From NCBI GenBank assembly GCA_013285465.1, contig CP053449.1, positions 1,445,540 through 1,509,539 of the forward strand: a DNA stretch of 64,000 nt, written 5' to 3'. A program made the translations under genes and the position numbers. This document shows, one piece after another, positions 43,149-47,544 of the stretch; position 1 is the first letter of the stretch; every line of letters starts with the position of its first letter. The notes under the pieces were generated by a model. It did no database searches. It was not told where the DNA came from and worked only from the letters and a program-made list of their open reading frames with translations. Source of the stretch: Pseudomonadota bacterium. Lineage in GTDB: Bacteria > Pseudomonadota > Alphaproteobacteria > Micavibrionales > CSBR16-224.

Positions 43149-44180
43149 TTACGGCTTATCTTTACCATTGGGCTTATTTTGCGCCGCCTGACGTTCTTTG
43201 TCAAAGGCCTCATAAGCCTTGACGATTTTCGCCACCAGCGGATCACGGACCACGTCATCTTCGGTAAACTGGATGAATTTGATATCCTCGACATTGCTCA
43301 GCACATGCATCGCCTCGGTCAGACCGGATGTGGTCTTATAAGGCAGATCCGACTGTGACGGATCGCCCGTGACAATCATGTGACTGTCAGGACCAAGACG
43401 CGTCAGCACCATTTTCATCTGTGCCGTCGTCGTGTTCTGCGCCTCATCCAATACCACGCAGGCCTTTGATAATGTGCGGCCGCGCATAAAGGCCAGCGGC
43501 GCGATTTCAATCGCCTGCTGTGACAAATGATGAACAATCTGTTCCGGCGTCAACATATCATGCAATGCATCGTAAAGCGGACGCAGATAAGGATCGATTT
43601 TTTCTTTCATATCACCGGGAAGGAAACCGAGATTTTCTCCCGCTTCTACAGCTGGACGGCACAGAATAATGCGTTCAATCACACCTTTCTGCAGTTTCAT
43701 CACGGCGAAAGCGATCGCCAGATAGGTTTTTCCCGTTCCCGCCGGGCCCAGACCGAACACCATACGGCTTTTTTCCATCGCCTCCATATAGGCGGCCTGC
43801 CGCGGCGTTCGTGCCGTTAATTGCTGTTTTTCGCGCCCATGCTGTAATTTCACCTGCGGCTCTTGAAAAGCGGCGCGTGCCATCTTTTGCGTTGCCGTAT
43901 CCAGCGTGTTATCGGCAATACGGATGGCCGCGTCAACCTCGTCAAGCCCGACAGGGAGATTATGCGAGACGCGCTCCCATAGAGATTCCAGCACATGCCG
44001 CGCACGTTTCAGCTGCGCATGCTGCCCCGTCAGGACGACTTCATTGCCTTTGGAAAAAATCTGAATACCCAGCTGGTCTTCGATACGGGACAAATGCTCT
44101 CCGCATTCCCCGAACAGCAAAGGAACAAGATGATTATCTTCGAATTGTAAACCGAGCTGCTGAACCGCTTTCTTGCTCAA
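43149..44180 (-). CDS. phoH: PhoH-family ATPase (YbeZ), canonical copy
   Basis: 343-aa ORF with a TTG start at 44180 and a GAGGG SD. Walker [14 protein letters not shown]; conserved [32 protein letters not shown]. Directly upstream of ybeY. Confidence 0.92.
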   Translation of the reverse strand: [343 protein letters not shown]

Positions 44181-44306
44181 AGACCCTCACTTTGAAATAT
44201 GCCGTGCCGCGAAACGACACCTTACCTACATATTCTATCCCGAAATTACTAAAAGAGACTTAATTTCAAGCATCTTGAGAAAAACTTCTGATGTGACGGA
44301 TAAAAG

Positions 44307-45026
44307 TTATTTGTGCGGCCCGCGGCCTAAATAATTGCGTAAACGCTGCTGTTTCCGGTTGTTTTCACGTTGCTGTTCGACACGGATATGCGTAATTTGA
44401 TAACTTTCCAGCCACAAATACAGCTGTGTTTCAACGCGTTTGTTTTTTTCTTTTTGCGCAAGTTCCAGCGCCTTTTCAATATGCGGCACCATTTCTTTAT
44501 GCAGATTTCTGTCATCAACTTCTTTTAACAGAACGGTTAAAACATCACGCTTGCCCATTCCGGCGGCGCATTCAATCGCCGTTTTTCCTTCCGCCCCCAT
44601 AGAGGTCAAAGTAATATCCGCCCCCGCATCCAGCAGCAGACGGCAATTTTCAACCTTCCCATACATTGCAGCATGCATCAGCGGCGTATATCCCGTCGCA
44701 TTCTGATGATTGGGGTCGGCTTTGGCCTCCAGCAGGCTTCGGATAATGCCCGGAAAGGCATTCGCCGCACCGAAGATCAGAGCGGTATTACCGAATTTAT
44801 CGGTCAGATCAATCGTTGCGTTATTAGTGACAAAAATTGACACACCGGTATCAAAATCCTGCCCGGCCATAATCATCAGACCGGTCTTGCCTTTATGCGT
44901 GCCTTCACAGCATTTGGCATCGGGGTCCGCACCGCCTTCCAGCGCCGCATAGAGAGCGGAACTGTCGCTGATAATCGCAGCGTTTATCAGTTCCTCATCC
45001 CATGCGTTTTTATAAAATGCGTCCAT
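44307..45026 (-). CDS. ankyrin-repeat protein with LRxYL C-terminal tail, embedded in the miaB-phoH-ybeY operon
   Basis: 239-aa ORF with an AGAGGA SD in the 14-nt gap after the upstream phoH-like stop. ANK repeats present (GNTALIFGAANAFPGIIRSLLEAKADPN, GYTPLMHAAMYGKVENCRLLLDAGAD). Ends ..NRKQQRLRNYLGRGPHK. Confidence 0.85.
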   Translation of the reverse strand: MDAFYKNAWDEELINAAIISDSSALYAALEGGADPDAKCCEGTHKGKTGLMIMAGQDFDTGVSIFVTNNATIDLTDKFGNTALIFGAANAFPGIIRSLLEAKADPNHQNATGYTPLMHAAMYGKVENCRLLLDAGADITLTSMGAEGKTAIECAAGMGKRDVLTVLLKEVDDRNLHKEMVPHIEKALELAQKEKNKRVETQLYLWLESYQITHIRVEQQRENNRKQQRLRNYLGRGPHK

Positions 45027-45040
45027 TTTTCCTCTGCGGA

Positions 45041-46144
45041 TTATCTCCCGGGCTGGTTGCCGGCGTTTTTGCGGACGGACGGTGCCTGCCGGACCGGCTC
45101 GTCATCGGTTTCCAGCGCTTTGACAATTTTTGAAACCACCGGGCTACGAACGATATCTTCCGCCGTAAATTCACGGACAGCGATACCGTCAACACCTTTC
45201 AACTTAGGTACAACCAGTGCAAGTCCGCTATCCTCATGTTTCAAATCCGTCTGTTTCGGATCGCCGGTGACAACCATTTTGCTGCCTTCGCCGATACGGG
45301 TCAGGGCCATTTTCATTTGCTCATAGGTCGTGTTCTGACCTTCATCCAAGATCACGAAAGCGTTTTTAAACGTTCTGCCGCGCATGAATTCAACAGGAGC
45401 AATCTCAATCACGCCGCGCTGCTGCAAAGAATCCAGCATATCGCGTCCGATCAGGTTTTCCAGTTCGTCATAAAGCGGGCGCAGATAAGGTGCAAGTTTC
45501 GCCTTCTCATCTCCCGGCAAAGCGCCAAGATCCTTTCCGTTACCGACAGCCGGACGCGCCAGAAAAATTTTCTCAACCTCTCCGGCTTTCAGGGCTTTAA
45601 CCGCCTCATAAGCCGCAAGGAAGGTTTTCCCCGTACCGGCAGGCCCGACACCGAAACTGACGTCATTCTGCTGAATATCAGTCAGAAAATCAGCCTGATT
45701 GGTGTTTCTGGCTTCAACATCAATCACCAGCTCAACATGGTTTTCGGGATGATTACGTTTATCCTGACGCAATTCTTTTTTCTGTACGCTTTGCTGGCGA
45801 ATTTCACGACCATTGCGAATAATCTGCTGTTTATTTTCCGCAAACTGTTCCCGCACACCGACCTGTTTGGCAATGGCAGCAATGGAATTGTCATTGACGG
45901 CGCTGCCTTTGGCCAGCGCACTTGACAGAGAATAGAAAGCCTCTTTGGCTTTGCTGATTTCTTCCTTGGTCGTGCCCGTCAGTCTGATGCGGTCCATACG
46001 TCCCGGGTTTTCAAGTTTTACATGAAACGCTTTTTCGAAAGCTCTAAGGCAGTCGCGGCTTTCCTGCTCATCTGCGAACAAAAAGCTTGCCAGATTGTCG
46101 TCGGCGTCGTTGCGGATAGTAATCGTGTTTTTACGTTTTGTCAT
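45041..46144 (-). CDS. PhoH-family ATPase, divergent second copy
   Basis: 367-aa ORF whose ATG overlaps the miaB stop (ATGA). Walker [14 protein letters not shown]. Divergent core [32 protein letters not shown]. Lys/Gln-rich linker between the N-domain and the ATPase. Confidence 0.85.
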
Positions 46145-47544
46145 GCTGCCTCTCTTCCCTCATTTTTGTGTTTGGTGTTTTTGCTGGTGGTTTCCGTCGT
46201 TACAACCGCGCCCGACAAGCTGTTTGCCAGAGCGGTTTCAATCATCACATCTGCAATCTGTCCCTGCAGACGATCATGCGCCGTCACATGAACGGATTGC
46301 ATATAAGGGGTTTTACCCAGCAACTGCCCGTCTTTCTGGCCTTTGCGGTCAAACAGTACCGGAAGCGTTTTGCCGACGGTAGAGAGGTTATAGTCCTTTT
46401 GTTGCGCATTCAGCAGCGCCTGCAATTCCTGAAGCCGCACATCTTTGATTTTCTCAGGAACAATACCGCCCATTTTCGCGCCGGGTGTGCCGGGGCGCGG
46501 GCTGTACTTAAAGGAGTAACAGAAGACATAGCCGATATCCTCGACCAGTTTCAGCGTGTCTTTATGATCGGCATCCGTTTCACCGGGGAAACCGACGATA
46601 AAATCGGAGCTCATCGCAATATCGGGGCGTGCCTTGCGCAGTTTCTCGATAATCGCACGGTAATCATCCGCCGTATGTTTGCGGTTCATCAGTTTCAGAA
46701 TATTGTCCGACCCGCTTTGCACGGGCAAATGCAGGAAGGGCATCAGAATATCCACTTCGCCATGTGCGGCGATCAGATCATCTTCCATATCGCGCGGATG
46801 CGAGGTTGTGTAACGCAGGCGGGCAAGCCCGTCGATCTCAGCCATTTCACGGATCAAACGTCCCAATCCCCATGTTTTGCCATCCGGCCCTTCGCCGTGA
46901 TAGGCATTCACATTCTGCCCCAGTAGCATCAACTCCTTTGTGCCAGATTTGACAAGCGCACGCGCCTCGGCAAGCACCTGCGCGGCAGGGCGAGAGAATT
47001 CCGCGCCGCGCGTATAAGGCACGACACAGAAGGTGCAGAACTTATCACAGCCTTCCTGAACGGATAAAAAGGCAGATACGCCCTGCGTGTTGCCCTCTTC
47101 GGGAAGAGAATCAAATTTCGATTCCATCGGAAATTCGGTATTGACGATACGGTTTGCGCCGTAAGCGCCCGTTGCCTTTGCCACCATTTCCGGCAATTCG
47201 TGATAGGTTTGCGGACCGAACACCATATCAACATAAGGGGCGCGATCCATGATGACATCGCCTTCAGCCTGCGCGACACAGCCCGCAACAGCAATCAGCG
47301 TTTCATCGCCTTTTTCGGCGCGTTGTTTTTTGAATTTATTCAGGCGACCCAGTTCGGAAAAGACTTTTTCCGTCGCCTTCTCGCGGATATGGCAGGTATT
47401 CAGAATCACCATATCGGCATTTTCGGGGGAATCCACAGTCTCGTAGCCCAGCGGCAAAAGCACGTCAGACATCTTGACACTGTCATAGACATTCATCTGA
47501 CAGCCCCAGGTCTTGATAAACAGCTTCTTCTGCTTTTCAGCCAT
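46141..47544 (-). CDS. miaB: tRNA (N6-isopentenyl adenosine(37)-C2)-methylthiotransferase MiaB
   Basis: 467-aa ORF with N-terminal [11 protein letters not shown], the radical-SAM [15 protein letters not shown] motif and a C-terminal TRAM region. Confidence 0.95.

Follow-up and report, generated by a model that had tools for sequence, protein, structure and literature searches.

YbeZ-type proteins and the miaB-corC locus

In Escherichia coli, the PhoH-family protein YbeZ (b0660) is encoded by a single gene within the cluster miaB-ybeZ-ybeY-ybeX(corC)-lnt. Two-hybrid assays show binding of E. coli YbeZ to YbeY, and what YbeZ does biochemically has yet to be defined (PMC5101352); YbeZ also binds RsfS (PMC11445079). 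YbeZ/PhoH is among the most widespread bacterial P-loop proteins without a defined biochemical function and is known chiefly through its operon link to, and its two-hybrid interaction with, YbeY, an RNase of 16S rRNA maturation. We analyzed a stretch of 64,000 nucleotides (nt; hereafter, the 64-kb window) from contig CP053449.1 of the alphaproteobacterial assembly GCA_013285465.1, where the order miaB...ybeY-corC is the same as in E. coli but two tandem phoH genes with an ankyrin repeat (ANK) gene between them stand in the place of the one ybeZ (Table 1). The canonical copy is called PhoH-A and the second, divergent copy PhoH-B. It is fairly probable that two modules lie side by side at the locus, in which PhoH-B is an old YbeZ-type paralog of an uncultured alphaproteobacterial lineage and the ANK gene is a later addition of one sub-clade. 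New here are a rare, conserved, signature-bearing tandem YbeZ paralog and a clade-specific ANK insertion. A full-text search of the literature on YbeZ/PhoH paralogs and on the assembly accessions found no account of tandem ybeZ paralogs.

Both window PhoH proteins share with E. coli YbeZ an N-terminal alpha/beta domain followed by a PF02562 nucleoside triphosphatase (NTPase) domain, and both are closer to YbeZ (distances of 0.62 and 0.74) than to E. coli PhoH (0.99 and 1.06). PhoH-B differs from E. coli YbeZ in a replaced EAGE-x-LGF loop and a longer, Lys/Gln-rich helical linker. The phosphate-starvation-inducible, ATP-binding protein PhoH/PsiH (b1020) of E. coli belongs to the same Pfam family and is likewise a second paralog in its genome, but its gene, unlike the window copies, is unlinked to miaB and ybeY. 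The window PhoH proteins are not members of the PhoH/PsiH equivalog NF007827 (179.6 and 210.9 bits; cut-off, 380) or of the PhoH2 PIN-PhoH RNA helicase/RNase model NF053827 (104.4 and 87 bits; cut-off, 680). No PIN domain was matched by Pfam in either protein, and only the PhoH-type P-loop domain is common to them and PhoH2.

The Dot/Icm Ank proteins of Legionella and Coxiella are ANK effectors of intracellular bacteria, and positively charged C-terminal signals are typical of substrates of VirB/D4 type IV secretion systems. The window ANK proteins resemble the Dot/Icm Ank effectors in being small and multi-copy, in lacking a signal peptide and in having Arg/Lys-rich tails. Against the models of the named effectors AnkH, AnkY, AnkG and AnkC (cut-offs of 450-600), the best score of a window ANK protein was 34.9 bits, a match at the level of the repeats only. 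The tail motif of the window proteins, described below, was matched to no described signal.

PhoH-B is a divergent YbeZ-type protein

Both PhoH proteins scored above the PF02562 gathering cut-off of 27 bits and were 48% identical over the 224 amino acids (aa) of the NTPase domain. The NTPase motifs, Walker A (GPAGTGKT), Walker B (DExQN), MRGRT and TGDxxQxDL, showed no variation in either copy or anywhere in the clade of PhoH-B-type sequences. The N-terminal domains of PhoH-B and canonical YbeZ were homologous (hhalign probability of 96%, E of 3.5e-9, 86 columns), which makes the architecture of PhoH-B that of YbeZ. An AlphaFold2 model of PhoH-B (predicted local distance difference test score, pLDDT, of 82) had a beta-alpha-alpha-beta-beta-alpha N-terminal domain and rendered the Lys/Gln-rich linker as a long helix (residues 99-131). 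The initial annotation, made from the DNA letters and their translations, had reported an intact Walker A motif in each copy and, in the second copy, an altered, near-invariant stretch and a Lys/Gln-rich linker; all were recovered here, with the linker at about residues 99-135.

The altered stretch is the loop EAGE-x-LGF, which is invariant in canonical YbeZ-type PhoH proteins, present in PhoH-A and absent from PhoH-B. Alignment columns were compared between 36 canonical sequences and 22 sequences of the PhoH-B clade, using PhoH-A numbering. Residues E179, A180, E182 and F186 were present in 100% of the canonical sequences, and G, N, K and A took their places in 45-91% of the PhoH-B clade (E179G in 73%, E182K and F186A in 91% each). 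Outside the loop, D196A, A205E and L237F were found in 100% of the clade, A230E in 91% and Y323L in 86%. The signature further includes YDEL and the change of MRGRTL to MRGRTF. The divergence of the two copies is asymmetric, since PhoH-A departs from the canonical consensus in very few of the conserved columns and PhoH-B has fixed substitutions of its own. Four basal members of the clade (the PhoH-B protein of relative L096, P0021, P0363 and P0364) kept EAGE and already had YDEL and MRGRTF; they form a stepwise transition series. In the AlphaFold2 model the rebuilt loop (residues 202-205) was of low confidence. A search of solved structures returned only 3B85, the NTPase domain of Corynebacterium glutamicum PhoH, and no complexes, so there was no known interface on which to place the loop.

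The PhoH-B subfamily is real but rare. Among 1.84 billion cluster representatives, a profile search identified 6,610 PhoH clusters at E <= 1e-30, about 20-25 of which scored above the canonical plateau and carried the signature. No Pfam or NCBIfam model describes the subfamily. A scan of GTDB genomes with PhoH-B recovered only two close relatives (L014 and L015), the remainder being generic PhoH proteins, and therefore helped little in charting the deeper clade. Signature-region patterns found two clade members in a metagenome scan (L097 and L098); the other 37 metagenome loci held more distant PhoH genes with EFMRGRTF, mostly 38-48% identical over the query region.

Conservation of the locus among relatives

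The arrangement miaB-phoH-B-ANK-phoH-A-ybeY-corC recurred in relatives whose PhoH-B proteins were 78-59% identical to that of the window, and an identical PhoH-B sequence was present on eight contigs, the longest of 2.67 Mb. The full ANK arrangement was found at PhoH-B identities of 78% (L004-L006), 72% (L007, the same as L015) and 71% (L008). The ANK gene was also present in an alphaproteobacterial metagenome-assembled genome (L014; 76%), whose contig ends soon after it, and in L009 (59%), whose contig ends within it; the L009 gene product is collinear with that of the window at 32% identity. The gap from phoH-B to the ANK gene was 10-20 nt throughout the six ANK-bearing lineages. This retention of the ANK gene next to phoH-B, seen in six or more related lineages, agrees with the initial annotation, in which the ANK gene was described as wired into the cluster. 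The gene was confined to the sub-clade of the window, with PhoH-B identities of at least 59%.

Five deeper lineages had a tandem miaB-phoH-B-phoH-A-ybeY-corC(-lnt) arrangement with no gene between the two phoH copies. These were L094, L096 (a 1.5-Mb contig of GCA_025934695.1), L138/L139, L140/L141 and a JGI contig. Since these relatives carry tandem phoH genes and no ANK gene, the duplication of PhoH is much older than the insertion of the ANK gene and is independent of it. The initial annotation had considered a special pairing of PhoH-B with the ANK protein and had named two phoH genes without an ANK insertion in relatives as a refuting result; the synteny comparison that it proposed gave that result in all five lineages, which speaks against a special pairing and against a feature peculiar to this genome. 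From these distributions the tandem phoH pair appears to be the ancestral state, and the ANK genes at and upstream of the locus would have been added in the sub-clade of the window. In two further relatives, L010 (phoH-B at 5940-7046) and L013 (667-1743), phoH-B was followed by unrelated genes in place of phoH-A-ybeY-corC. The genes downstream of phoH-B in these two relatives were a convergent DUF4116 gene, or a 115-aa open reading frame (ORF) and citrate synthase.

The junctions of the two phoH genes were also conserved. The 4-nt overlap of miaB and phoH-B (ATGA, formed by the miaB TGA stop and the phoH-B ATG) was present in the window, L004, L009, L010, L096 and the JGI contig, and in L013 and L140 a truncated upstream ORF, the identity of which was not checked, overlapped phoH-B in the same manner. 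PhoH-B does not occupy the YbeZ-type position directly upstream of ybeY: the ANK gene and PhoH-A intervene in the window, and PhoH-A intervenes in relatives. PhoH-A does occupy it; its gap to ybeY is 26 nt in the window, whereas the two genes share 4 nt in L094, L096, L138 and the JGI contig.

Origin of PhoH-B

In neighbor-joining trees with bootstrap support, the PhoH-B-type sequences formed one clade (97-99% bootstrap) with a mean internal distance of 0.51. The PhoH-A partners fell inside the alphaproteobacterial YbeZ clade (98% bootstrap) next to Azospirillaceae-type sequences, and the closest named relatives of PhoH-A were from the Azospirillaceae (about 55% identity). The trees rest on 205 columns, include a long outgroup branch and are prone to long-branch attraction; monophyly of canonical YbeZ received only 45% support, and the trees do not fix where PhoH-B joins the bacterial YbeZ proteins. 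The phylogeny of the two copies, which the initial annotation had proposed as a means to separate duplication from horizontal transfer, thus yielded separate, well-supported clades but did not distinguish the two origins.

Because the tree itself does not show a duplication, the case for tandem duplication within the lineage is made from position and architecture. We infer that PhoH-B is a tandem duplicate that accelerated later; its tandem position, its architecture, its coupling to miaB and the transition series favor this origin. It is rather doubtful, by comparison, that PhoH-B came in by horizontal transfer, or descends from a very old paralogous gene, and settled between miaB and ybeZ with no tandem duplication. 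Such an origin would account for the failure of PhoH-B to group in or beside the alphaproteobacterial canonical clade in any of 200 bootstraps, for its smaller mean distance to non-alphaproteobacterial YbeZ proteins (0.77) than to alphaproteobacterial ones (0.83), and for its best matches outside the clade, which were from Bacillota and Thermotogota (50-57% identity over the ATPase domain). However, no donor clade was found, and PhoH-B has the YbeZ two-domain architecture, stands directly beside its homolog as a tandem copy and shows translational coupling to miaB, the usual seat of ybeZ-type genes. The EAGE loop of the basal members is also what would be expected of a duplicate that accelerated later. 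A phage source was considered and rejected: a tblastn search of 50,697 phage records gave at most 54% identity for PhoH-B, PhoH-A matched the same records equally well or better, and both copies scored about 260 bits against phrog_170.

Selection and the relation of the ANK gene to PhoH-B

Substitution rates were estimated between the window and each of L004 and L007. The ratios of nonsynonymous to synonymous substitution rates (dN/dS) were 0.08-0.11 for PhoH-B, 0.12-0.25 for the ANK protein and 0.05-0.11 for PhoH-A, and all genes of the locus that were compared are under purifying selection. PhoH-B has evolved faster than PhoH-A, with identities of 78% and 72% vs. 93% and 84% in the same genome pairs. 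The synonymous rate (dS) between the window and L004 was 1.9 for phoH-B and 1.3 for the ANK gene, about twice that of miaB, phoH-A, ybeY and corC (0.6-0.75), and a similar trend was seen against L007. Relaxed constraint on codons or recombination in the past could account for the raised dS of phoH-B and ANK.

The ANK protein matched the Pfam models Ank, Ank_2, Ank_3, Ank_4 and Ank_5 above their cut-offs. In its AlphaFold2 model (pLDDT of 90), about five helix-turn-helix repeats were followed by a conserved helical extension (helices at residues 176-192 and 196-234) and then a basic end. Database orthologs of the protein came from the close clade only (90, 88, 77, 74 and 51% identity), followed by repeat-level matches of at most 36%. 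At least eight ANK genes are present in the window, at 13001, 13704, 20198, 21768, 22513, 44307, 47735 and 48280 (within 13001-14429, 20198-23136, 44307-45026 and 47735-48816), and they are scattered among housekeeping genes such as those for aminoacyl-tRNA synthetases and accC. Recent copying of the ANK gene from these neighbors was rejected, because identity to the other window ANK proteins was at most 32% and limited to the repeats. Membership in a defense system was also rejected, since PADLOC gave only partial matches (PDC-M72A, 98.8 bits over the ANK repeats; Nhi/AbiO, at most 25 bits).

All window ANK proteins have Arg/Lys-rich C-terminal tails. Five ORFs of the window end in [RQ]xxLRx[YF][LIV]xR plus basic residues, e.g., NRHQTLRQYLKRGRG and NRHAALRSYLRR; four of these encode ANK proteins and the fifth encodes a 149-aa protein with no Pfam domain (Table 1). 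The tail is kept in the ANK orthologs of relatives (LRRYLGRGP, MRRYINRR and LRQYLQRK). As it sits on differing N-terminal domains, the tail looks modular, which suggests a targeting or export signal, and the tail-bearing ANK proteins of the window are probably exported and host-interacting. Secretion genes were absent from the window ORFs scanned, and secretion systems were not sought outside the window. The density of eukaryote-like genes in the window suggests a host-associated lifestyle. A gene for a serpin is also present (Table 1).

That PhoH-B and the ANK protein are a dedicated pair, with the ANK protein serving as an adaptor or regulator of the ATPase or with PhoH-B serving as a chaperone or ATPase for the ANK protein, is unlikely. 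The close spacing and a Shine-Dalgarno sequence of its own are constant features of the ANK gene in all six ANK-bearing lineages, its positional orthology persists at 32% identity, and both genes are under purifying selection with dS values above those of their flanks. Because the juxtaposition has been retained over such deep divergence, the pairing keeps some weight. Against it, PhoH-B with its full signature occurs with no adjacent ANK gene in seven deeper lineages, so that the divergence of PhoH-B predates the ANK gene and does not need it. No sequence feature of PhoH-B tracks the presence of ANK, and the ANK gene belongs to a tail-bearing set that is scattered genome-wide. With many tail-bearing ANK genes among housekeeping genes, the insertion behind phoH-B looks like one case of a genome-wide pattern.

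It is very improbable that PhoH-B is redundant or decaying: its faster evolution and the loss of an otherwise invariant acidic loop fit decay, but no lineage seen has a broken or shortened copy, the catalytic motifs are invariant, the substitutions peculiar to PhoH-B are fixed throughout a clade of considerable internal distance and, with dN/dS near 0.1, purifying selection and intact motifs rule out a pseudogene. Decay of the second PhoH copy in other strains, which the initial annotation had listed as a refuting result, was not observed, and its description of that copy as a diverged paralog is borne out by an intact, selected gene with clade-wide substitutions.

Transcription signals and the two-module reading

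Two conserved blocks resemble promoters (Table 1). The first lies about 35 nt ahead of the miaB ATG and was shared by five relatives in the alignment. The second lies in the spacer between the ANK gene and phoH-A, where an exact 15-mer of the block occurs once in the window; the third base of its putative -10 box (TAnAAT) is variable, as in real -10 boxes. No terminator-like structure was detected at the window locus between phoH-B and the ANK gene or after the ANK gene. These signals suggest two units, miaB-phoH-B(-ANK) and phoH-A-ybeY-corC, and the recurring 4-nt overlaps of miaB with phoH-B and of phoH-A with ybeY agree with this division. Because the promoter-like block lies between the ANK gene and phoH-A, the ANK gene would end the miaB unit and would not lie inside the ybeY ribosome-maturation unit. 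The initial annotation had placed the ANK gene within a ribosome/tRNA-maturation operon and had named an internal terminator or promoter as a feature that might isolate it. The stable position of the ANK gene behind phoH-B is in line with that placement; the conserved block, which puts the ANK gene at the end of the miaB unit, is not.

The spacer block also holds the sequence TTAA-N7-TTAG, which resembles the alphaproteobacterial CtrA box (TTAA-N7-TTAA) and is present in L004, L007, L008 and L014 as well. This sequence overlaps the putative promoter spacer and may be a candidate operator.

The organization proposed here would place miaB-phoH-B, with the ANK gene appended, in one module and phoH-A-ybeY-corC in the other. 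PhoH-B keeps the miaB-proximal, translationally coupled seat, and PhoH-A keeps the ancestral sequence and the ybeY-proximal seat. The ancestral part in 16S rRNA maturation, linked to YbeY, would fall to PhoH-A, whereas PhoH-B is predicted to be an active NTPase with changed RNA or protein partner specificity. The ANK gene would have been inserted later, directly behind phoH-B and upstream of the promoter-like element for phoH-A. Given its 10-20-nt spacing, its own Shine-Dalgarno sequence and the lack of a terminator, it is most likely co-transcribed with miaB-phoH-B, which would give it expression at a housekeeping level.

Several observations weigh against this organization. Spacer structures differ among the ANK-less relatives, so the two-unit model is not uniform: the spacer between phoH-B and phoH-A in L096 holds a classic terminator (13-bp stem and U-run, z-score of -3.0), those of L094 and L140 hold strong hairpins without a U-run (z-scores of -3.9 and -4.5) and that of L138 has no notable structure. 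A uniform terminator between the phoH copies was rejected on these grounds. The promoter-like blocks are conserved sequence only and that of phoH-A has no good -35 hexamer, and read-through from the ANK gene into phoH-A may occur. The placement of PhoH-B outside the alphaproteobacterial canonical clade in all 200 bootstraps could be produced either by long-branch attraction or by an old transfer. Finally, the co-retention of the ANK gene behind phoH-B over deep divergence is what a functional link predicts.

At the level of sequence, the paralogy of PhoH-B, its age, its distribution, its purifying selection and the asymmetric divergence of the two copies are established. A further step, which we put forward as possible but tentative, is that the duplication split the nearly universal neighborhood links of YbeZ, with PhoH-B remaining coupled to miaB for another RNA or partner (e.g., tRNA or MiaB) and PhoH-A remaining coupled to YbeY for 16S rRNA maturation. 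If true, the lineage would be a natural separation-of-function experiment for a protein of unknown biochemical role, and the clade-specific substitutions would mark a specificity-determining surface. PhoH-B offers a concrete handle on the residues that set partner or substrate choice and on the meaning of the miaB-ybeZ adjacency. The ANK insertion is of lesser weight; it shows how a host-associated genome rich in ANK genes can append one of them to a housekeeping operon, and it extends a family of proteins with a distinctive basic C-terminal tail.

Locus anatomy and other features of the window

The gene order and junctions from miaB to corC were as first annotated (Table 1), and the E. coli cluster supports the statement that a single phoH gene is usual. 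The phoH-B TAA stop is followed by a 14-nt spacer (tccgcAGAGGAaaa), containing an AGAGGA Shine-Dalgarno sequence, and the ANK ATG. The gap between the ANK gene and phoH-A is 126 nt.

Table 1. Features of the miaB-corC locus and other features of the 64-kb window (positions are those of the window; SD, Shine-Dalgarno; tail motif, [RQ]xxLRx[YF][LIV]xR).
Feature	Coordinates	Strand	Size and evidence
ORF with tail motif	10265-10714	minus	149 aa
Serpin	14494-15876	minus	460 aa; PF00079, 260 bits
ANK gene with tail motif	20198-20944	plus	
ORF, APH-family kinase and aminotransferase after corC	39936-41503	minus	
Conserved ORF after corC	41063-41503		No Pfam match
corC/ybeX (CBS + CorC_HlyC)	41561-42574	minus	337 aa; Pfam CBS, CorC_HlyC; NF011675, 146 bits, below cut-off
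ybeY (16S rRNA maturation endoribonuclease)	42595-43122	minus	175 aa; TIGR00043, 137.7 bits (cut-off 45)
PhoH-A, canonical YbeZ-type PhoH	43149-44180	minus	343 aa; TTG start; PF02562, 300.3 bits, E 7.8e-90
Promoter/operator-like block in ANK-phoH-A spacer	44232-44263	minus	TTAA-N3-TCTTTTAGTAATTTC-N4-6-TAnAAT; invariant in 5 related loci
ANK gene, about 5 repeats, helical extension and Arg-rich C-terminal tail (..QQRLRNYLGRGPHK) with tail motif	44307-45026	minus	239 aa; Ank_2, 74.6 bits, E 9.8e-21
PhoH-B, divergent YbeZ-type PhoH NTPase paralog	45041-46144	minus	367 aa; PF02562, 266.4 bits, E 1.9e-79
miaB (tRNA i6A37 methylthiotransferase)	46141-47544	minus	467 aa; TIGR01574, 480.8 bits (cut-off 355.3); UPF0004, Radical_SAM and TRAM domains
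Sigma-70-like promoter candidate upstream of miaB	47577-47605	minus	CTTGC...TATGTAATAT; invariant in 5 related loci
Two small ANK genes divergent from miaB, both with tail motif	47735-48283, 48280-48816	plus	182 and 178 aa, 4-nt overlap; Pfam Ank; tails ..LRQYIKRGMKK and ..LRSFVRTRKM
CcrM-like N6/N4 DNA methyltransferase with RAMA domain, then KAP-family P-loop NTPase	56757-60347	plus	373 aa, then 721 aa

The ANK pair divergent from miaB was kept in L001, L004 and L007, and a single ANK gene occupied this place in L009. No ANK gene was present in the flanks upstream of miaB that were covered for the ANK-less relatives, namely L010, L094, L096 and L138. The downstream end of the cluster also differed between the two groups. 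In the ANK-less relatives L094, L096 and L140, as in E. coli, corC is followed by lnt, whereas in the ANK-bearing clade (the window and L005-L008) it is followed by an ORF of 131-146 aa, an APH-family kinase and an aminotransferase. As lnt has been replaced after corC in the ANK-bearing clade, rearrangement has also affected the classic cluster at its downstream end.

An Rfam scan of the window found two tRNAs, both outside the locus, and no match within it. The TTG start of phoH-A (44178-44180) was kept in the equivalent genes of distant relatives (L004, L008, L094 and L096) and is preceded by a GAGG-type Shine-Dalgarno sequence, GAGGG in the window; for phoH-A of L007, one gene caller picked an upstream GTG. 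The CtrA-like sequence of the ANK-phoH-A spacer lies in the same 64-kb window as the CcrM-type methyltransferase gene.

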